Assembly (NCBI GenBank): GCA_963792175.1
Contig: CAWBVG010000034.1
Location: forward strand, 85,830-149,829
DNA: 64,000 bases
Direction of reading: 5' to 3'
Source of the DNA: an uncultured Acidobacteriota bacterium
GTDB taxonomy: Bacteria; Acidobacteriota; Vicinamibacteria; Vicinamibacterales; CAVVIG01
Shown: positions 42,300 to 57,404 of the stretch, piece after piece
How positions within the stretch are numbered: the stretch's first letter is position 1
Layout of the letters: each line of letters begins with the position of its first letter
Position numbers and translations under genes: made by a program
The notes under the pieces: model-generated
Seen by the model: only the letters and a program-made list of their open reading frames with translations
The model's database searches: none
What the model was told of the DNA's origin: nothing

Positions 42300-42743
42300 A
42301 TGGCGGCGAGATACCTCGACGAGCGGACTTATGAGACCGGCGACATCGTCTTCGCTGAAGGCGATCCGGGCTCGGAGATGTTCATCGTCTCCGAGGGGAA
42401 CGTCGTCATCACGAAGCAGGTCGCCGGGCGGGACGTGTTCCTGGCCGCGCAGGGACGAGGTGACTTCTTCGGCGAGATGGCGCTGCTCACCTCCAGCCCG
42501 CGTCACGGCACGTGCGTTGCGCTCGTCCCGACGCGGCTGGTGGCGATCAAGAGCGGTGAGCTGCTCATGAAGCTGCGGCGCGATCCGACGTTTGCGCTCG
42601 AGATGCTGCAGCAGATGACCCGGCGCATCGGTTATCTGGAGGATCAGATGGCGAAGCTCATGGAGCAGGAGCTGGCGTCGCGCCAGGAGCTCGCCACGAT
42701 TCTGGCGAAGTCCGAATATCGTCTCCGCGACAGCCCGGGATGA
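42300..42743 (+). CDS. Stand-alone cyclic nucleotide-binding domain protein
   Basis: IVFAEGDPGSEMFIVSEGNV, GDFFGEMALL, PRHGT; no HTH; TAAAAT-N7-ATG. Confidence 0.88.
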   Translation: MAARYLDERTYETGDIVFAEGDPGSEMFIVSEGNVVITKQVAGRDVFLAAQGRGDFFGEMALLTSSPRHGTCVALVPTRLVAIKSGELLMKLRRDPTFALEMLQQMTRRIGYLEDQMAKLMEQELASRQELATILAKSEYRLRDSPG

Positions 42744-43497
42744 TCACCGACGTCCGCGAGAATCGGCTGCTCGTGACGTCCGACCCGCATATCGGCCACC
42801 TTTTCTGCGACGCGCGCCGCGGGCTGGTTCGCTGGCTGGAATACGCCTGCGCCCACAACTACAACGTCTGTATCAACGGCGACGGTATCGAGCTTCAGTA
42901 CACGTCGCTGAGAAGGTTCACGACGGAGACGGCGGCCTGCTGCGCGACATCCGCCGGATCGCCAGCGAGATCACCATCTACTACACGATCGGCAACCACG
43001 ACATCATCCTGGAGCACTACCTCGGCGACTGGGGAGGGCTGCGGCTGGTTCCTTATCTGAACGTCAGTTCGGGCACGAAACGCATCCACATCGAACATGG
43101 CCATCTGTACGACACGTCGCTCGAGGGTCGCCCGGATCTTCGTCATGGACTGAGACGGTTCTTCTGCTTTTTGTGCCGGGTTTACCCGCCCGGCTTCCAT
43201 TGGCACCAGAAGTACGAAGTGGTGCGATACCGATATATCCGGCGGCTGCTCGGCCAGGATCGTCACCTGCTCGACTCGCCGATGACGCGCGACGTGAGCC
43301 CATCATTCCAGGAAGCGGCGGAGGACGTGGCGCAGCGAGGATTCGACGCGGTCATCTTCGGGCACACGCATTATCACGGCGTGCTGCCGTTGAACGGAAA
43401 TCGCGCACGTTACTTCAACACCGGCAGCTGGTTCGACCAGCCACACTACGTCGCGATCGACAACGGCGAGATGGAACTCAGGCCCTGGCCGCAATAG
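42740..43497 (+). CDS. Metallophosphoesterase, LpxH/PlcP-like; frameshifted
   Basis: TSDPHIG, INGDG, IGNHD, IEHGH, IFGHTH, NTGSW across three frames; ATGA coupling to cNMP gene. Confidence 0.8.
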
Positions 43498-43547: not shown

Positions 43548-44143
43548 ATGCGCTCCCGATGGATCGCCGCCCTGGAAGCCGTCGCGGTGACCCTGTTCTT
43601 CGCCCTTGTGGCCCTCCTGGCGACGCGCGTAGTCCGCGACGCGCCGGAACGGGACTCGAACTCTCCTTCTGATCCTGGGGGCGACCGCCGGCTACGCGCT
43701 CGCCGACGTCGCGTCCGGCCTGACCCACTGGTTCTGCGACACGTTCTTCCGGGAAGACACGCCCTGCATCGGCCGCGTGCTGATCTTCCCTTTCCGCGAG
43801 CACCACCGCGACCCGACCGCGATGACGCGCCACGGGTTCCTGGAACTCACCGGAAACAGCTGCCTCGGCGTGTCGCCGATCCTGGGGCTGGCCGCCTGGC
43901 GGCCCTGGTCGCCGATCCTGGACGCGGGGCTGATCGCGTTCGCTCTCGCCCTGTTCGGCACCAACCTCTTCCACAAGTGGGCCCATTCCGCGGAAGTTCC
44001 CGGCATCGTCCGATGGCTTCAGAAATGCAACCTGATTCTGAACCCCGCCCGCCACCAGGTCCACCACACGCCGCCGAACAAGAAGCGCCTATTGCGTTAC
44101 GAACGGCTGGATGAACGTGCTTCTCGACCGGATCCTCCCGTGA
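43548..44143 (+). CDS. carF: CarF/TMEM189 (PEDS1) family plasmanyl desaturase; frameshifts near 43660 and 44085
   Basis: ADVASGLTHWFCDT, FREHH, TNLFHKWAH, RHQVHH, YCVTNGWMN: the His-rich signature of the family. Confidence 0.85.
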
Positions 44144-45027
44144 TGGAGACCGCGCGGATCTCACTGATCGACAACGCGAGGTGGAGCTCAGGCATAGCGC
44201 GGCCGGCGTCGAGCACACGTTGGGGCGGTTGCTTGAGGTCCCACACGAGACCGAGGAGCGACAAGAGCTTCAGGATGTAGTACGTGAGGTCGACTTCCCA
44301 CCAGAAGAATCCCATGCGGGTCGACGTAGGCGTAGTAATGATGATTGTTGTGCCAGCCTTCGCCCATCGTGAAGAGCGCCAGCACGAGGTTGTTTCGACT
44401 CGTGTCGGTCGTCGGGTAGCGAATCCTTCCAAACATGTGGCAGAAGGAGTTGATCGCAAACGTGGCATGGAACAGCAGCACCGTGCTGATGAAAAATCCC
44501 CAGACCAGCCCCTGCCAACCCATCGCGAGCAAACAGCCGACGGCGAGAAGCACGCTGGAAACCGCATACCAGTGGTTCAATAATCGGAGCTCGGGGTACT
44601 GCGCGAAGTCCTGGATGATGTCGAGTCGGGTCGCATCGTGCCTTCTGGCCAGGAGCCAACCGAGGTGCGACCACCAGAACCCCTCACGCTCGGGGGAATG
44701 CACATCCGCCTCCTGGTCGGAATGCTGGTGATGATGGCGATGATGCCCCGCCCACCAGAGGGGGCCTCTCTGCACCGCGGAGCAGGCGAGCGCCGCCAGC
44801 ACGAATTGAAAGGCGCGGCTCGTGCGATACGACCGGTGGGCAAAGTAGCGATGATAGCCGCCGGTGATGGCAAACATCCGGACCGCGTACGTCGTCGCGC
44901 ACAACACGATCGCGTTCCATGACACGCCGGTCCAGAACGCGGCGAGACACGCCACGTGCACGAGGAGAAAAGGGATGCTCTTGATCCAGTCGACCCGGTC
45001 CAGATCCGCGGTGGACGCAGTGCGCAT
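44097..45027 (-). CDS. Acyl-CoA delta-9-type fatty acid desaturase; frameshift near 44330, 3' end uncertain
   Basis: GYHRYFAHRSY, WWAGHHRHHH, DVHSP, INSFCH, GEGWHNNHH, WWEVDLTY. Confidence 0.9.
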
Positions 45028-45157
45028 GAGTCGAGCGAGTTTACCGTACGGCTTCCACTTCTTCGCCTGCGCTTCCGTGACCCACTTGCATTAGAGTAGG
45101 CCCAGAGACACTCGACCCTTTCCCTCGGGCCCCAGGCTTTGCGACGTTGGGAAAACC

Positions 45158-47452
45158 ATGAGCGAAACCTGCGGCTTTAGCTTGTCTCCGCCTTGTCCGG
45201 CCGCAGGCTCCTGTTGACGGGCGCCACCGGCTTCATCGGCAAAGTCACCCTGGCGATGCTGCTCAATCGCCACCCGTCCGTAGGACGGCTATACGTTCTT
45301 GTCCGCTCGCGCCCCGGGCGCGACGCCGAACAGCGGTTCATCGACATCCTGGGCTCTCCCGCGTTCACGCGACTGCAGCGGCGGCACGGGAAGGACCTCG
45401 AGCGCTTCGTGAGGGAGCGCGTCAAAGTCGTCGGCGGCGACGTCACCGAGCCCGGTTTTGGCATCCCGCCGCAAGCCTTATCTGCGTTGACAGGCAGGAT
45501 CGATGCGATCGTCAACATGGCGGGTCTTGTCTCCTTCAATCCCGCAATGGACGTCTCGCTGAAGATCAACACTCACGGAGCCCGCTACGCCGCAAGGCTG
45601 GCGCTTGCCCTTCGGGCGAAGCTCGTTCATGTATCCACCTGCTATGTGGCCGGCTTGCGTGCGGGCGAGGTGCGCGAGAACGAGCGGCTGTCCGGCTATT
45701 TTCCGAAGGGGCTCACGACGCCCGGTATCTTCTCGGCCGCCGCCGAGCTCGCCGAATGCGACGCATGCGTCGAACGGATCGCGCAACGCGCCAGAGCCGA
45801 GATACCCGGACGGCGCCGCGCCAGGCGCTGGAGCGAGGCGCAACTGGTCGAGGAAGGGAGCCGCCGCGCCCGCGCCTGGGGCTGGCCAAACATCTACTGT
45901 TTCACCAAGGCATTGGGCGAGCAACTGATCGCCGAGACTCCGGGCCTCGATTTTACAATCGTGAGGCCATCGGTCGTGGAGAGCTCCCTCCGCTATCCCT
46001 TCCCGGGCTGGAACGAAGACGTCACGACGAGCGCTCAGATGATCCTGACCATGTGCAGGGGCCATGTCCTCTGGCCCGCGCACCGGAAAGCGGCGTTGGA
46101 CCTCATCCCTGTCGATCTCGTGGCCGCGGGCACGATCGCCGCCACCGCCGCTCTTCTGTCCGGGCGCCAGGAGCGCGTGTATCACCTGGCCTCTTCCGAC
46201 GCGAATCCTGTGACGGTGCGCCGCTGTGGGCGGTACATCGGCCAGTATCGTCGCAGGCCACTACAAAGACCACGCCCCCGGCGCGTTGTGGGCGCATTGG
46301 GTATGGACGCGCGTGGGAGTCTTCACGGTATCGGAGCCCGTCTACCGCCGTTTCGGGGTGCCCGCTTTCCGCAAGGCGGTCGCGCGCCTCTCGAGGATGT
46401 TCGCCAAGCCGCCGCGAACACTCGCAAGGATCGAGCGGGAGCTGACCCAGGTCGAGCGCGCCGTCAATGCCTTCACGCCTTTCATCCACGACATCGACTG
46501 CGTTTTCAAGACGGACAATCTCCGGGCGCTCTACGCACAGTTGCCGGCAGCCGAGGCGGCGAGCTTTCCCTGGGATCCCGAGACCATCGATTGGCGGCAC
46601 TACTGGTCGGACGTGCACACGCAAGGGCTGCGGCAGTGGGTCTTCCCGGGCTTTCCGGGCCGCAATGGCGATACGCTGAACCCGGCCTCTGGCGCCGTCG
46701 CCAGTCGGGCAGTGCGCGCGGCATTGAACCTCGGCCAGCGCGTCGTCTACGGCGGGCTATTCCGCGCCAAGGTCGTCGGCGAAAAAAACATTCCCGAGGC
46801 TCCGGGCTTCATCGTCGCCTCGAATCATGCCAGCCATTGGACATGGGCCTCATCAAGCATGCGCTGGGGCCCTCCGGCCGCGAGCTCGCGGCGCTGGCGG
46901 CCAAGGATTATTTCTTCAAGAATCCAGCACTGAACTTTTTTTTCCGCAATTATACGAACCTGCTTGCCTATCGGCCGCACCGCCAATGTCAAGGACTCGC
47001 TGGCCGTGGCATCGCAGGCACTCAAGCGCGGCAAGAACCTGCTGATCTTCCCCGAGGCGACGCGCTCGACGACAGGGAAGATCGCACCGTTCAAGGCCAC
47101 TGTTGGCTATCTTGCCTTGCAGAATCAGGCCGATGTCCTGCCCGCCTACGTCGCAGGCACCTTCGACTCCCTGCCTAAGGGCGGTATCGTGCCGAGGAGC
47201 TTGCGAGTCGCGGCCCATCTGGGACCGATCCTACGCTACGCGCAGCTCGACGGAGCGACCAGGCACCTTGCTTCCAAAGAGGCCTCCCGCGCCGTGACGA
47301 CAATCATCGAAGAGGCCGTGCGCGCACTCGAGTGCCAGGCGGCGCGCAAAATGTGGGACGGTTCACCCGCTTTAAGCGGCGCTGTCTCCGGACACCGTTT
47401 GGCGCGGCTCGTCCGCCGCCTCCGGCTGCGTCGGCTGAGCCCAGCCGAATAG
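45158..47452 (+). CDS. Fatty acyl reductase (NAD_binding_4 + Sterile) fused to PlsC-type acyltransferase, ElbD-like without A and T domains; several frameshifts
   Basis: LLLTGATGFIGKV, HVSTCYV, GWPNIYCFTK (YxxxK), IVRPSVVES, PFPGWNE, PWDPETIDW; then in the same frame ASNHASH, and next frames DMGLIK, AAKDYFF, LLIFPEATRS. Confidence 0.85.
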
Positions 47453-49096
47453 AGGCTCGTTGCCCGGTATCAGCTTGCCAGGGTTCATGATCCCAGCCGG
47501 GTCCAAGCCCGCCTTGAGAGCCTTGAGCGCCGTGATCCCGGCCTTCGAGATTTCCTCTTCCATCCATGGCCGGTGCTCGCGGCCGACGGCATGGTGGTGG
47601 GTGAGCGTGGCTTTGTTCGCGAGAAAGGTTTCGGTAATGAGCTTCTTGAAGCTGTAATACTGTTCCAGCTCCGCGCCAGCCTGTTGTGCGCAGGCGTAGG
47701 TGAAGTAAACACAGGCCCCAGTCGTGTAAGTATGGGAGATGTGGCAGCCAATGAAGCCCGGCGTGCCATCGCGCTCGAACTTCTCCTTCATCACAGCGAT
47801 CACCTTTTTATATAAAGGCAGCACGTCGCTCCAGGTCGCAGCTGTCTCGGCCACGTCGCACATGATGCCGCGGTCCATGACGAAATCGCGTATGTAAGGG
47901 AGGTTGAACTTGTCCTTCTGCCACAGGGCTCCAACCTCATGCCCGAGATCAAGGCCATGATGGCGTTTCAGAATCCGGCGGACGTCTTTCCGTAAGGCGT
48001 TTACGCGGTCGGAGTCTCCTTCAATACCGACAATCATGATCGCGGGATGACGATAGCCGCGCGCTTTGAGGAGCTTCTTGAATTGAGCCTGGATGAAGCC
48101 CTTGACGCCGGTGGTCAATGGCTTCATGTTTGACGCCAGCTCCGTCTCGGCGTTGTCCTGCAGGCGGATGAGGCTGGGTCGACGCTCGGACTGGATGAGT
48201 TCTTGGACGGCGGCGAGCGCTTCTTCGAATTCGCGGAAGAGCACGCCGCGGTAGTCTCTGGCTGGAGGGGTTTTGTGCACGCGCATCGTGGCCTCGGTAA
48301 TGACGCCCAGGACCCCTTCCGATCCCGTCACCAGGCGATTGAGGTCGGGCCCGGCCGATGATGCGGGCGTGTTTCTCGTCGTGAGCGTTCCGGAGGGTGT
48401 AACCAGCTTCACGGAGACGAGCATGTGTTCGATCTTGCCGTAGGCATCCGACTGCATGCCGGCGGAGCGCGTGGCGAGCCAGCCGCCCAGCGTCGAGTAC
48501 CGAAAGAGTCGGGGTAGTGGCCGAGCGAAAAACCGCGGGCCTGTAGGTCTTGCTCGAGTTTGGGGCCCAGAGCACCGGCTTCGATGACAGCCGTGTTCGA
48601 TTCCGGGTCGAGCGACAACAGCCGGTTCATGCGCGTCATGTCGAGGGTGACGACCATGCGGACGGCCTCCTCCGGGTTGATGCCGCCGACGATGTTGGTG
48701 CCGCCGCCGAACGGGACGAGGCAGACGCCGTGCTCGTGGGCCAGCGCGACGACAGCCTCCACGTCCTCGTGGCCTTCGGGATAAACGACGAGGTCGGGGA
48801 CGGCGCACGATGCCTTTGCGCACGTAAAAGAGATCGGGATAGCTTTTGCCGTACGAGTGCAGCAGCCTCTCGTCTTCGGTGTCTGTGATCTGATCGGGTT
48901 TGAGCCGCGCGGCGAGAGCGCGGCAGAAGCCGTCGTTGAACAACGGGGCTTCGAGGCGAATCTCCGCGCGCCTGACCGGAGGGCTGGAGCGCGTGGTCTT
49001 CAGGCCCAGGGTTCGGACCACCCAGGGCCAGAAGTCAGGCCTGTCGGCGATCGAGAACTCGAACCCGGTGTCACCCCAGCCCCACCATTTCATCAT
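47372..49096 (-). CDS. agpS: Alkyldihydroxyacetonephosphate synthase (AGPS/ADPS), FAD-linked; two compensating frameshifts near 48800 and 48500
   Basis: MKWWGWG, GKSYPDL, PFGGGTNI, GHYPDSF-x-YSTLGGWLATRSAGMQS, GSEGVLGVIT, CHISHTYTTGACVYFT, THHHAVG, DPAGIMNPGKL. Confidence 0.88.
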   Translation of the reverse strand: MMKWWGWGDTGFEFSIADRPDFWPWVVRTLGLKTTRSSPPVRRAEIRLEAPLFNDGFCRALAARLKPDQITDTEDERLLHSYGKSYPDLFYVRKGIVRRPRPRRLSRRPRGRGGCRRAGPRARRLPRPVRRRHQHRRRHQPGGGRPHGRHPRHDAHEPAVVARPGIEHGCHRSRCSGPQTRARPTGPRFFARPLPRLFRYSTLGGWLATRSAGMQSDAYGKIEHMLVSVKLVTPSGTLTTRNTPASSAGPDLNRLVTGSEGVLGVITEATMRVHKTPPARDYRGVLFREFEEALAAVQELIQSERRPSLIRLQDNAETELASNMKPLTTGVKGFIQAQFKKLLKARGYRHPAIMIVGIEGDSDRVNALRKDVRRILKRHHGLDLGHEVGALWQKDKFNLPYIRDFVMDRGIMCDVAETAATWSDVLPLYKKVIAVMKEKFERDGTPGFIGCHISHTYTTGACVYFTYACAQQAGAELEQYYSFKKLITETFLANKATLTHHHAVGREHRPWMEEEISKAGITALKALKAGLDPAGIMNPGKLIPGNEPLFGWAQPTQPEAADEPRQTVSGDSAA

Positions 49097-49856
49097 GACG
49101 AGACTTTACTGGATTTCAATCAATGCCGGGCAGGCGCTGTTCACGGGCGTGTGGACCGGTCTCTGGGTGACCACGGCGCTGCTGATCATGGTGTTCACCC
49201 GTGACAAAAGGATTCCACTAGCGATGGCCCGCCGGATCTGGGCACCAGGGTTGATTCGGTGCGTGGGGGCGAAGCTGGATGTCCGGGGGCTCGAGAACGT
49301 AGACTTCAGCCGCCCTCACGTCTTCGTCGCGAATCATGTGTCGACGATCGATATCCCCGTCGTCTTCGCCGCGATTCCGGTGAACCTTCGATTCATCATC
49401 AAGAAAGAGCTGACATACGCGCCGTTCGTGGGACTCTTCGCCTGGGCCACCGGGATGGTTTTCGTCGATCGGAAGGAAAGCAAGGGCGCCCTTGCTGTCG
49501 TGAAGCGCGTGGGATCGCTGAGCGCCGCAGGGCAAAGTGTGATCGCGTTTCCCGAGGGGACGCGCAATCGGAGTAACACGCTCCTGCCCTTCAAGAAGGG
49601 CGTTTTTGTTGCGGCGTATCACGCAGGCGTGCCGATCGTGCCCCTGGCCATCGACGGCTCGCGCGAGGTGATGCCGCCCCCCACGTGGGCGCTGCGGCCA
49701 GGCCCTATCCGCGTGGCCATTGGCAAACCGATCCCGACGGCAGGGCTGTCGCGGGAAGACAGCGAAACCCTGCCGAAACGTGCGCACGAAGCGGTCGCCG
49801 CGCTTCGGAAGACCATCGCAAGCGGCCTTCCGCCAGTCGTTCAGTCGGGGCGCTGA
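49095..49856 (+). CDS. plsC: 1-acyl(alkyl)-glycerol-3-phosphate acyltransferase
   Basis: FVANHVSTID (NHX4D), FIIKKEL, VFVDR, FPEGTR, PFKKG, VPIVP; ATG 49095. Confidence 0.9.
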   Translation: MTRLYWISINAGQALFTGVWTGLWVTTALLIMVFTRDKRIPLAMARRIWAPGLIRCVGAKLDVRGLENVDFSRPHVFVANHVSTIDIPVVFAAIPVNLRFIIKKELTYAPFVGLFAWATGMVFVDRKESKGALAVVKRVGSLSAAGQSVIAFPEGTRNRSNTLLPFKKGVFVAAYHAGVPIVPLAIDGSREVMPPPTWALRPGPIRVAIGKPIPTAGLSREDSETLPKRAHEAVAALRKTIASGLPPVVQSGR

Positions 49857-54151: not shown

Positions 54152-54236
54152 CCTGACAGTATATCGAGCGCCTTCCGACAATTCTGCAATCCGGCTGTTC
54201 CGCCGCCGCGCAATTTATCTTTTCTGTATGGCGTGG

Positions 54237-54245
54237 TGATATTCT
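54237..54245 (+). promoter_or_regulatory. Extended -10 promoter of the ACP-FAAL-spt operon
   Basis: TG-a-TATTCT preceded by an AT-rich tract, 14 nt upstream of ATG 54260. Confidence 0.55.
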
Positions 54246-54259
54246 TACCCACTTCATAC

Positions 54260-54523
54260 ATGGTCCAGCCTGCCTCGGCCTCCCTCGAACATACTGTGAT
54301 AGACGTGCTGAAGAACGTGAGTCGACGGCCGATCGAGCCGACGATGGACAGCGATCTGGTCGCCGATCTCGGCTTCGATTCGCTCCAGGTCCTGGAGCTG
54401 GTTGCCGAGCTCGAAGATCGCTTCGACGTCTCGATTCCGTTGAACGATGTGCCGTCCACGCGTACGGTCGCCCAGATCGTCGCGCAGGTGGCGCGTCTCG
54501 TGGGAGAACGACCAACAGCCTGA
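54260..54523 (+). CDS. Acyl carrier protein
   Basis: LVADLGFDSLQVLELVAELEDRFDVSIP phosphopantetheine motif. Confidence 0.93.
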   Translation: MVQPASASLEHTVIDVLKNVSRRPIEPTMDSDLVADLGFDSLQVLELVAELEDRFDVSIPLNDVPSTRTVAQIVAQVARLVGERPTA

Positions 54524-56121
54524 TGGGCCGATTGCGGACGCTGCCGGACGCGCTTGCCGACGCCGCGCGCGGGGATGCTGGATATCTCTTCGCGGCCGGT
54601 CGCGCGGACACGTTTCGCTCGTTTGCCGACATCCGCATCGCGTCGATGCGGGCGGCGCGGGCGCTGCGCGAGGCGGGACTCCGCCGCGGCGACCTCGTCG
54701 CGCTCGTCATCGCGGACGCCGAAGCCTTCCTGACGATGTTGTGTGCGGCGTCGATGGCGGGCGTGATTCCGGCCTCGTTGTATCCGCCGGCGCTGATGGG
54801 CGCTGGCGATCTGTCCCGATACTTCCAGCTGACCGCCGGCATTCTGCGCGCCGCTCGCGCCAGGGCGGTCGTCACCAGTGCGGCGCTCGTGCCGGCGTTC
54901 GACGGCCTGCGGCCGCGCTGCCCGTCGCTGTCGCTGGTGATCGCGCACGAGCAGTGCGACGCGCCGCTCGTCGAGCCGGACGTTCTGCCGGCGCTCGATG
55001 ACATCGCGTTCGTCCAGTTCACGTCGGGGTCGACCTCGGCGCCGAAAGGCGTGGCGCTCACGCACGCCAACCTGTCGGCCAACATCGATGCGATCAACGG
55101 ACCCGCTGGCCTGATGACGGGCGCCGACGACGTCGGCGTGAGCTGGCTGCCGCTCAATCACGACATGGGGCTGGTCGGCATGGCGCTTGGCGCGATGTAC
55201 GCCGCGCGTCCCTGCGTGCTGCTGCCGCCGCAGACGTTCGTGAAGCGCCCGGCCGAGTGGCTGCGGGCGCTGACGCGCCATGGCGGCACCATCAGTTTTG
55301 CGCCGTCCTTTGCCTACGACTTGTGCGTGCGCCGCATCAAGGACGCCGATCTCGAAGGCCTCGACCTGTCGCGGTGGCGCGTGGCCGGCTGCGGCGCCGA
55401 GCCGATCCATCCGCCGACCCTCGCGGCCTTCGCGCGCAAGTTCGCGCCCGTCGGCTTCCGCGAGACCAGCTTCCTCCCGAGCTACGGCCTCGCGGAGCAC
55501 GTGCTGGCTGCGACGTTTGCGCCGCGGGGGCGCCCGCTCCGCACCGAGAATTCGCTCGTCAGCTGCGGTGCCCCGCTGCCCGGCCATGCAATCCGCATCG
55601 TGGACGAGGACAACCAGCCGGTGCCCGAGCGCCGCGTCGGCGAGATTCTGCTGTCGGGCCCCTCCGTGATGCTGGGCTACTATCACCAGGACGAGCCCGG
55701 TGACGCGATCGAAGATGGCTGGTTGCGCACGGGCGATCTGGGATACCTGGCCGACGGCGAGTTGTTCGTGTGCGGGAGAGCGAAGGACGTCATCATTGCG
55801 CACGGCCGCAAGTACCATCCGCAGGACCTCGAGTGGGCCGTGGACGATCTGGCCGGGGTGCGGCGCGGCCGGGTGGTCGCGTTCGGCACCGCCGGAGCCG
55901 GGCGCGCGGATCGCGTCGTGATGGTGGTAGAGCCGAACGGGACGGTGCCCGCGGCGTCGCTGACCGACATGGTGCGGCGCCGCATTGGCGATCTCTTCGG
56001 CCTGTACGTCGACGAGGTCGCGATCGTGCCAAGCGGGACGGTCGGGCGGACGACCAGCGGCAAGGTGCAGCGCGCAGCGACGCGAGAACGGTGGGCGTCG
56101 CTGGCGGAGCGCGAGAGCTGA
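54523..56121 (+). CDS. Fatty acyl-AMP ligase / acyl-ACP synthetase
   Basis: QFTSGSTSAPKGV, SWLPLNHDMGLVG, GAEPI, SYGLAE, LRTGDLG, GRAKDVII, RTTSGKVQR. Confidence 0.92.
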   Translation: MGRLRTLPDALADAARGDAGYLFAAGRADTFRSFADIRIASMRAARALREAGLRRGDLVALVIADAEAFLTMLCAASMAGVIPASLYPPALMGAGDLSRYFQLTAGILRAARARAVVTSAALVPAFDGLRPRCPSLSLVIAHEQCDAPLVEPDVLPALDDIAFVQFTSGSTSAPKGVALTHANLSANIDAINGPAGLMTGADDVGVSWLPLNHDMGLVGMALGAMYAARPCVLLPPQTFVKRPAEWLRALTRHGGTISFAPSFAYDLCVRRIKDADLEGLDLSRWRVAGCGAEPIHPPTLAAFARKFAPVGFRETSFLPSYGLAEHVLAATFAPRGRPLRTENSLVSCGAPLPGHAIRIVDEDNQPVPERRVGEILLSGPSVMLGYYHQDEPGDAIEDGWLRTGDLGYLADGELFVCGRAKDVIIAHGRKYHPQDLEWAVDDLAGVRRGRVVAFGTAGAGRADRVVMVVEPNGTVPAASLTDMVRRRIGDLFGLYVDEVAIVPSGTVGRTTSGKVQRAATRERWASLAERES

Positions 56122-56176
56122 GAGCCGAGAGCTGAGAGCCGAGAGCTGAAAGCTGAGCAGCTGAAAGCTGAAAGCT
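56113..56176 (+). repeat. Nine-unit heptamer array GA(G/A)AGC(T/C) filling the FAAL-spt intergenic space
   Basis: gagagct gagagcc gagagct gagagcc gagagct gaaagct gagcagct gaaagct gaaagct, then GTG. Confidence 0.95.
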
Positions 56177-57404
56177 GTGGATTTACTCGACAAACTCCGC
56201 GCCGTCGAACAACGTGCCGCAGCCGTGGCGGACCGATCCGCCATGCCGGGGCTGACCGTCATCGACCGCGTGCTGGGGCCCTGCGAGGTTGTCGTCCAGG
56301 GTCGGCCCACGCTGATGTTCGGCTCGAACAACTACCTGGGCCTCACGCTGCACCCTGACGTCGTCGCGGCGGCCCGCCGCGCGGTCGTGGAGTACGGCAC
56401 GGGCACCACCGGCTCGCGGACCGCGAACGGGACGCTGGCGATTCACGAACAGCTCGAGCGCCAGCTCGCCACCTGGTTCCGGAAGCGCCACGCCATCATC
56501 TTCAGCACCGGCTACCAGGCGAACCTGTCGCTGGTCGGCGGACTGTGCGGGCCGGGCGATGTCATTTTGATCGACCGCGACAGCCACGCGAGCATCTACG
56601 ACGCGACGCGCCAGACCGCGGCACAGGTGATTGGCTTCCGGCACAACTCGCCTGAGAGCCTGCGCAAGAAGCTGGAACGGCTGCCGGGCGCCGAGTCAAA
56701 CCGGCTGGTGGTCGTCGAGGGGCTCTATTCGATCCGCGGCGACGTCGCGCCGCTGCGCGACATCGTCAGTGTCTGCCGCGCGCATCACGCGTACCTGCTC
56801 GTCGACGAGGCGCATTCGCTCGGGACCTATGGCGCCACCGGTCTGGGGTGCGCCGAGGATCAGGGCGTGCTCGACGAGGTCGACTTCATCGTCGGCACCT
56901 TCTCCAAGTCGCTGGCGGGCATCGGCGGCGTGTGCGTGTCGAACCATCCCGAGCTGCGCGCGCTGCACTTCCTCGCGCGGGCCTACGTGTTCACGGCGTC
57001 AGGTTCGCCGTCGAACATCGCCAGCGTCGCCGCGGCGGTGGACGTCGTCCGCGCGCATCCGGAGCTGCGCGATCAGCTGTGGGCGAACGTCCGCCGGCTG
57101 CGCCGTGGTCTGCAGGAGCTCGGTTACGCGATCGGCAGCACCGAATCGCCGATCGTGCCGATTCTCACGGGCGACGAAGAGCGCACGATCGCGCTCTGGC
57201 AGGTACTTGCTCAACGAAGGACTGTACGTGAACCTGATCGTGCCGCCAGGCTGCCCGCGCGACGAGTGCGTGTTGCGGGCGAGCTGCTCGGCGGCGCATA
57301 GCCCCGAGCATCTGACGCGGGCGATGGAGGTGTTCGCCCGCGCCCTCTTACAGCCAGCCTTCGCGTCGATACCACGCAGCGGCCTGCGCGAGTCCTTCGT
57401 CTAG
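56177..57404 (+). CDS. spt: Serine palmitoyltransferase (alpha-oxoamine synthase family); frameshift near 57205
   Basis: FGSNNYLGLT, GTTGSRTANGT, FSTGYQANL, DSHASIYD, FRHNS, VDEAHS, GTFSKS (PLP Lys), SNHP, YVFTAS; context with ACP, ligase, GNAT and reductase. Confidence 0.85.

Follow-up and report, generated by a model that had tools for sequence, protein, structure and literature searches.

Aerobic ether-lipid synthesis in bacteria is only partly understood. Two sources describe Myxococcus xanthus as carrying a three-gene operon formed by MXAN_1676, encoding alkyl-dihydroxyacetone phosphate (DHAP) synthase (AGPS), MXAN_1675, encoding a fatty acyl-CoA reductase (FAR) fused to a GNPAT-like acyltransferase and termed FARAT, and MXAN_1674, encoding an NAD-epimerase (PMC9131029, PMC13012113); according to the first of them, a review, the operon was noted as early as 2006. 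PMC13012113 also proposes that eukaryotic FARAT stem from Myxococcota, and presents them as carrying a GNPAT domain and grouping with Myxococcia FARAT. A second myxobacterial protein, the four-domain ElbD, is the other point of reference for the gene described here. This gene lies in a stretch of 64,000 nucleotides (the window) of contig CAWBVG010000034.1 from an uncultured Acidobacteriota bacterium (GCA_963792175.1). The region 45158-47452 (+) is a real FAR-acyltransferase gene of a soil/sediment acidobacterium, a cut-down form of ElbD located beside AGPS. The general idea of a bacterial FAR-acyltransferase fusion next to AGPS is already published, and the ElbD-type version is a new variant of it. 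We consider it fairly probable, at about 72%, that the locus encodes a functional two-domain enzyme of the ElbD lineage, made up of FAR, a short linker and a PlsC-type acyltransferase, that works with the adjacent AGPS.

The start codon (ATG at 45158) and the stop codon (47450-47452) of the fusion gene coincide with the ends of an intact 764-aa homologue, P0001, and the window copy would also yield a protein of ~764 aa when read through. The open reading frame (ORF) listing and the translation revealed reductase and acyltransferase coding sequence in alternating frames along 45158-47452 (+), and tblastn with P0001 defined five frame segments: 45158-45183 in frame 2, 45184-46257 in frame 1, 46259-46836 in frame 2, 46837-46961 in frame 1 and 46963-47449 in frame 2. 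The same comparison, together with a DNA alignment to a 13-kb metagenome contig (L106), placed four single-base indels at the breaks, with a base missing after 45183 and after 46836 and an extra base at 46258 and 46962. A first-pass annotation of the window had read the end of the reductase (DWRHYW...GLRQWVFP), the linker and the start of the acyltransferase (GQRVVYGGLF...NHASH) in one frame; this holds for the domain junction, which is continuous in the ORF 46226-46933, and fails for the gene as a whole.

The reductase core (45184-46257, +) contains the nucleotide-binding motif GATGFIGK and the sequence YCFTK, of the YxxxK type, and matches Pfam NAD_binding_4 with an E-value of 2.7e-53 in 45193-46237. 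The next segment (46259-46836, +; boundaries from the ElbD alignment) includes the Sterile domain typical of the FAR C-terminus (Pfam, 2.4e-9 in 46226-46849), a linker of ~20 residues between reductase and acyltransferase (~46655-46715) and the beginning of the acyltransferase up to NHASH. The rest of this PlsC-type domain (46837-47452, +), with LDMGLIKH..., the FPEATR block and the C-terminal tail, is interrupted by the frame break at 46962, and its C-terminal half was recognized as Pfam Acyltransferase PF01553 (2.2e-8 in 46964-47449). The break after 46836 splits the HX4D motif, so that NHASH is followed by W in the window, versus NHASHLDMG in the homologues. The window copy encodes all of GATGFIGK, YCFTK, NHASH-LDMG (across the break) and FPEATR, and the catalytic positions Y247 and K251 of the reductase YxxxK, H557 and D562 of HX4D, and P632, E633, T635 and R636 of FPExTR are invariant in an alignment of nine two-domain proteins (A1). 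Among solved structures, P0001 matched the fatty acyl-CoA reductase 7eoz with residues 6-511 (E 3.3e-52) and PlsC 5kym with residues 531-676 (E 4.9e-14), which are separate, single-function proteins, in contrast with the single fused polypeptide found here. In NCBIfam, the acyltransferase of P0001 gave TIGR00530 (AGPAT) at 2e-17, under the model cut-off, and no match to the PlsB models. The fusion stretch appeared in no RNA run of the public-run search.

Comparison with ElbD was made through an Archangium ORF (L055:7968-12386, 1473 aa) standing in for the M. xanthus protein, whose Pfam domains are, in order, reductase, Sterile, AMP-binding, AMP-binding_C, PP-binding and Acyltransferase. Residues 7-499 of P0001 align to residues 12-552 of this protein (41% identity over 541 aa, E 2e-115) and residues 520-724 to residues 1241-1445 (47% identity over 205 aa, E 3e-57), whereas the ~690 central residues of ElbD (~553-1240), comprising AMP-binding, AMP-binding_C and PP-binding, are missing from the fusion; neither its pieces in the window nor P0001 gave a Pfam match to AMP-binding or PP-binding domains. 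The earlier proposal that both ends are ElbD-like and the two central domains absent is thus borne out. A collapse of the assembly at 46650-46720, which the first-pass annotation gave as a possible refutation, is ruled out by Logan contigs of four public sediment metagenome runs, compared with 45000-49200 of the window, which cross 45003-47670 or 45003-49200 colinearly, with neither insert nor joint, and in 46650-46720 differ from it only by A>C at 46664. By these alignments, the window protein belongs to the ElbD lineage and corresponds to an ElbD without residues ~553-1240. Two further differences with ElbD concern the surroundings: no elb-operon neighbours (ElbB HAD phosphatase, ElbE/ElbA NAD-epimerase) were detected with Pfam among the ORFs between 32 and 57 kb of the window, and the fusion is paired with AGPS, while the four-domain ElbD loci examined had no AGPS in their flanks (0/66, 0/50, 0/24 and 0/57, in sets that partly overlap).

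The two-domain form recurs among homologues. A search with the middle piece of the gene against a collection of 5.8 billion proteins returned 23 longer proteins, ten of which combine reductase and acyltransferase Pfam domains (512-823 aa, with P0001 being 95% identical to the query piece); one is a reductase alone (P0009, 549 aa) and the other 12 (1523-1584 aa) also carry AMP-binding and PP-binding and are of the ElbD type. HMMER, run exhaustively on 1.84 billion cluster representatives, gave 642 matches at E <= 1e-30, and the best 150 were sorted with domain profiles built from A1. Reductase and acyltransferase were adjacent (gap <120 aa) in 18 of these 150, one of them a 432-aa fragment, and separated by 120-400 aa in six; 60 were ElbD-like, with a gap >400 aa, 48 contained only the reductase (<650 aa), and 18 consisted of a reductase plus something else or were cut. 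With ten two-domain clusters and 18 of the best 150 representatives, a one-off deletion, the other explanation considered in the first-pass annotation, is also ruled out. Some ~13 acidobacterial ORFs of ~800 aa matching the reductase were candidates for additional fusions; the three examined turned out to be N-terminally extended reductases with no acyltransferase and no AGPS nearby.

Quick IQ-TREE runs, with SH-aLRT support only, recovered the 15 proteins of the P0001 clade as one group in the reductase tree (support 100) and in the acyltransferase tree (99), sitting in both among ElbD clades, with a poorly resolved backbone. When the two domains were concatenated (68 rows), the two-domain label took six changes on the resulting tree, and the starred branches forced at least five. 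This tree contains a deep two-domain clade of 14 proteins; within its ElbD part, the two-domain form appears as three separate lineages, namely the P0001 clade, P0037 with P0044 beside the ElbD-type P0032 (97), and P0033 beside the ElbD-type P0045 (100). The two-domain architecture seems to have arisen several times, and repeated loss of the central domains of ElbD is the simplest reading, with a direction that is inferred from an unrooted tree: the outgroups used for the acyltransferase (MXAN_1675-type and PlsC) gave no root, their branches reaching ~10 changes per column, and the branch of the MXAN_1675-type outgroup was also very long in the FAR tree.

As for distribution, none of 40 family and order relatives of the window's genome has the fusion gene, the best matches there being generic PlsC proteins with ~30% identity, and the 400 other genomes sampled from the phylum yielded no P0001-like two-domain match; one of the latter (G131) contains a match of ElbD length. 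Elsewhere among species-representative genomes the P0001 clade is present only in three metagenome-assembled genomes (MAGs) labelled as Elusimicrobia (L014-L016), and it is also found in six JGI/ENA metagenome contigs (L106-L111). This patchy spread points to horizontal transfer. For P0033, P0037 and P0044, no close relative was detected in species-representative genomes.

The AGPS homologue (47372-49096, -) is convergent with the fusion gene and overlaps its 3' end by 81 nt. The window copy matches Pfam FAD-oxidase_C and, partially, FAD_binding_4, and has two indels, near 48500 and 48795. The intact AGPS encoded in L106 matched ADPS of Dictyostelium (2uuu, 1.3e-130) and the mammalian enzyme (4bby, 1e-90), versus 2.4e-30 for D-lactate dehydrogenase, and its HHH stretch, a motif with a presumed catalytic role, was aligned with solved alkyl-DHAP synthases. 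AGPS was convergent and adjacent in 5/5 loci of the P0001 clade with enough flank (L014, L016, L106, L108 and L109); the loci left out of this count are L015, L107 and L111, which are truncated, and L110, with <1 kb of flanking sequence. Among the other two-domain lineages, AGPS adjoins the fusion in MAGs assigned to Trueperaceae (L318) and Wenzhouxiangella (L319), and lies 2 kb downstream in a MAG labelled as Coxiellaceae (L404). The linkage with agpS noticed in the window is therefore conserved in its clade and beyond, and AGPS alone among the neighbours is retained in distant two-domain members. Stand-alone reductases of the same family were also seen within a few kb of AGPS-like genes (L184 4098-11414 and the identical L185, L330 and L367), which suggests that they are unfused versions of the same module.

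With respect to bacterial FARAT, the genes of the MXAN_1675 type used for comparison come from two genomes of the G043 family, where AGPS (636 or 677 aa), the fusion (897 or 1066 aa) and the epimerase are encoded at L220 5352-10967 (-) and L221 3004-8826 (+), respectively; they were equated with MXAN_1675 by matching the operon described in PMC9131029 and PMC13012113, and not by M. xanthus sequence. The window fusion resembles them in being one polypeptide with N-terminal FAR and C-terminal acyltransferase, in adjoining AGPS and, by analogy, in its presumed role, the supply of both AGPS substrates. The differences are substantial. Identity between P0001 and the L220 protein is 32% over 323 aa in FAR and 23% (E 0.03) in the acyltransferase, which is PlsB/GNPAT-like in L220 (NF003441, 5e-28) and AGPAT-like in P0001; the Sterile domain present in the window fusion has no Pfam match in the MXAN_1675 type; and in the window the gene order differs and there is no epimerase gene. 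A gene of the MXAN_1675 type was found in G066 and G068; in G041 and G043, the AGPS-like genes had none next to them. Across another 40 genomes from the G043 family, every strong P0001 match was of the ElbD type, with other FAR-region matches being weak and N-terminal (E ~1e-14 to 1e-15, in three genomes). On sequence grounds, the window gene is of another lineage than the bacterial FARAT already in print, its acyltransferase falls into another subfamily, and the likeness is best described as analogy, not orthology. As a separate observation, Archangium, Cystobacter and G043 lack an operon of the MXAN_1675 type and have one or two AGPS-like genes elsewhere, with no fusion beside them.

The FARAT of Tetrahymena thermophila, Dictyostelium and other eukaryotes (see also PMC7375469) follow the same logic, a reductase fused to the first acyltransferase; the GNPAT acyltransferase given for them in PMC13012113 sets them apart from the window protein, whose acyltransferase is of another subfamily, so that this likeness too is one of analogy. 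The idea put forward in the first-pass annotation that a bacterium has reached the FARAT solution stands as an analogy, while the novelty it implied does not, since MXAN_1675 beside MXAN_1676 is in print (PMC9131029, PMC13012113). The literature searched, which did not extend to the original ElbD paper, most subscription journals or supplements, contained no account of an ElbD-type fusion reduced to two domains and paired with AGPS. The part available of a sponge-symbiont preprint mentions no such fusion either, and reports for elbD a split that separates the reductase from the adenylation domain (10.64898/2026.06.23.733905).

From the architecture, homology, motifs, intact copies in nature and AGPS linkage set out above we infer both activities, DHAP as the acceptor and the order of the steps. 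The reductase domain would produce a fatty alcohol from acyl-CoA or acyl carrier protein (ACP)-bound acyl groups, and the fused acyltransferase would provide acyl-DHAP for AGPS, which would then put the alcohol in place of the acyl group, yielding 1-O-alkyl-DHAP. Reduction of the keto group would lead to alkyl-glycerol-3-phosphate, which a separate PlsC could acylate at sn-2, and in the window's genome a CarF-like desaturase may finally form the vinyl ether. Because the self-loading ligase and carrier of ElbD are absent, the fusion would draw on the acyl-CoA or acyl-ACP pool of the cell. The candidate sn-2 acyltransferase is a PlsC/AGPAT protein encoded at 48900-49856 (+), with a Pfam match of 4.8e-33 and a TIGR00530 score of 119.5 bits, above the cut-off of 102.95, and is conserved in L106; with this second acyltransferase in the cluster exceeding the AGPAT cut-off, the fused domain would be available for the first acylation.

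Several points weigh against this reading, and are best considered along with the alternatives to which they lead. ElbD is genetically required in Myxococcus, and PMC9131029 states that its reductase and acyltransferase activities could not be demonstrated in vitro. Pfam analysis of the window ORFs gave no acyl- or alkyl-DHAP reductase candidate in the cluster. DHAP as the acceptor is a guess from context, because the acyltransferase is AGPAT/PlsC-like and not GNPAT/PlsB-like. The pathway could then be the same with the fused domain acting as an AGPAT, on sn-2 of 1-alkyl-glycerol-3-phosphate or on lyso-phosphatidate, and acyl-DHAP coming from another enzyme, as the only family matches of the domain (TIGR00530, 2e-17; 5kym, 4.9e-14) and the PlsB/GNPAT-like nature of the DHAP acyltransferases of FARAT would favour. 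We regard this alternative as rather unlikely, although it is the one to be taken most seriously, given that the cluster already has the separate PlsC, that no other candidate DHAP acyltransferase is found beside AGPS in the window, L106, L016, L319 or L404, and that AGPS is the neighbour conserved across distant members.

Five loci of another two-domain clade, all in Dehalococcoidia, also count against the main reading. These fusions (L309, L310 and L312-L314, from Dehalococcoidia/SAR202 MAGs) form a deep, separate clade of proteins of ~770-890 aa with no AGPS within 6 kb, and may have a different role. In other bacteria, members of this reductase family take part in making wax esters. Both facts could be accommodated if the fusion made wax esters or other neutral alkyl lipids, its acyltransferase esterifying the alcohol independently of AGPS. 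Known wax synthases, however, belong to a different family, the fused domain has the HX4D motifs of glycerolipid acyltransferases, and AGPS is adjacent in all five testable loci of the P0001 clade, which make this explanation very improbable for the window protein.

The remaining objections concern the frame breaks. The Logan contigs and the window share ~98.5% identity (in one case, 55 differing letters in 4198 bases), and in 4/4 runs each of the four break sites of the fusion shows a difference of exactly one base; the contigs also differ from the window at the two AGPS sites, with an additional T after 48500 and GG after 48795. L106 carries the same gene intact, in the same gene order and with all ORFs open, and differs from the window at the four fusion break sites. 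Two of the four runs, X2 and X3, have a longest record of equal length and could be a single data set, and the four may depend on each other or on the source of the window. The window's genome (6.84 Mb, 55 contigs, 82.6% complete) was examined for frame changes in conserved genes, the queries being 136 ORFs taken from four relatives with many contigs (G004, G005, G012 and G021). Frame changes affected 24/89 conserved genes, with 29 changes in 106,470 nt (0.27 per kb) on six contigs, while the same queries gave none in 14 genes of 400 kb of G006, a small control. Frame changes in about a quarter of the conserved genes are implausible biology, so the assembly is indel-rich, and we read the frame breaks in the fusion gene as assembly indel errors. 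A first estimate with 227 ORFs from G006, a genome of the same family (41/131 genes, 64 changes in 169,953 nt, 0.38 per kb) was discarded as inflated, because a query ORF from that genome changes frame itself, and the analysis was redone with the four relatives: in a control with one G006 ORF, the query shifted frame at residue ~386 versus 27/80 other genomes, with some frame change in 29/80. This ORF of 587 aa (L193:11117-12877) is probably two genes joined by an indel in the G006 assembly. The rpoB and rpoC families, considered as yardsticks for frameshifts, had no match in the window's genome, and apparent pseudogenes or split genes anywhere in its indel-rich assembly are suspect without read support.

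The distribution of the indels is less comfortable for this reading. About 10 fall in ~6.3 kb (42.9-48.8 kb), in five adjacent genes (metallophosphoesterase, CarF-like, desaturase, fusion and AGPS), a local density ~6x the genome mean, and the flanking P450, PlsC, GlcD-like and kinase genes are open. Low coverage, a mixture of strains or real decay are possible causes. In the last case, the gene and the surrounding cluster would be a decaying pseudogene island in the window strain and the frameshifts real mutations, for which the absence of the gene from 40/40 family and order relatives would be expected, as for any dispensable acquired island. We find this improbable: ~27% of the conserved genes on many contigs are frame-changed, there is no in-frame nonsense change or large deletion, all catalytic motifs are encoded, and substitutions versus the ~98.5% identical strain are mostly synonymous. 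Among 37 listed differences between the fusion and the contigs, 22 were synonymous and 15 non-synonymous, with 11/3/23 at the three codon positions, and 19 more difference sites on the compared stretch lie outside these 37; the counts by codon position versus L106 were 42/22/75 for the fusion and 25/14/65 for AGPS. The pattern of the fusion gene supports purifying selection, and assembly errors remain our interpretation of the breaks.

A broader proposal, that ElbD repeatedly lost its ligase and carrier core and that the fusions left behind came to be linked with AGPS across several phyla (in an Acidobacteriota genome and in MAGs assigned to Elusimicrobia, Trueperaceae, Wenzhouxiangella and Coxiellaceae), is more tentative, and we would not consider it likely at present. 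A natural two-domain form tied to AGPS in unrelated phyla argues that both AGPS substrates, fatty alcohol and acyl-DHAP, are supplied by the terminal domains. Under the broader proposal, DHAP acyltransferases would include a second class besides GNPAT, represented by the PlsC-type domain of the ElbD lineage, and FAR1 and GNPAT would have their bacterial equivalents in the two terminal domains of ElbD, offering a testable entry into the ElbD mechanism, with the two-domain fusion as a smaller protein for testing ElbD-type chemistry. The module and the CarF-like gene would constitute, in the window's genome, an acquired aerobic plasmalogen pathway outside Myxococcota. This bears on the spread of aerobic ether-lipid, and perhaps plasmalogen, synthesis beyond that phylum; in PMC13012113, the genomes with the full pathway in five other phyla number 12.

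The CarF-like gene (43548-44143, +) is a member of the CarF/PEDS1 family of ~200 aa, with Pfam Lipid_desat (PF10520) at 7.4e-32, and is distributed over three frames, with breaks near 43630 and 44085. Its product is 40-44% identical to myxobacterial CarF, and a 151-aa piece scored 119 bits with NF045946, below the cut-off of 500, versus 510 for myxobacterial CarF. The gene is in a stretch of ~665 nt present in the window and missing from the otherwise syntenic L106 and L107, and PF10520 was not found in two Elusimicrobia-labelled genomes (G044 and G045) with the fusion and AGPS. Between it and the fusion, and divergent from the latter, is the gene of a DesA-like membrane fatty-acid desaturase (44188-45027, -; Pfam FA_desaturase 3.4e-20), with a frame break near 44350. 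This gene is kept in L106, L107 and L108, the L106 copy matching NF049918 at 3.5e-25, under the cut-off, and the encoded enzyme may modify alkyl or acyl chains in the lipids formed. Upstream of the CarF-like gene are those of a cytochrome P450 (40871-42274, +) and a cyclic nucleotide monophosphate (cNMP)-binding protein (42300-42743, +), both identified with Pfam and syntenic with L106, and that of a calcineurin-like metallophosphoesterase (42740-43497, +), with a frame break near 42960-43000 and an intact orthologue in L106 (Pfam Metallophos, 2.1e-10). Farther downstream (54157-57298, +), a class I/II aminotransferase gene follows a FAAL-like gene whose product combines AMP-binding with a DIP2-like C-terminal domain. 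This pair, which may be lipid-related, is ~5 kb from the cluster, with a histidine kinase gene in between.

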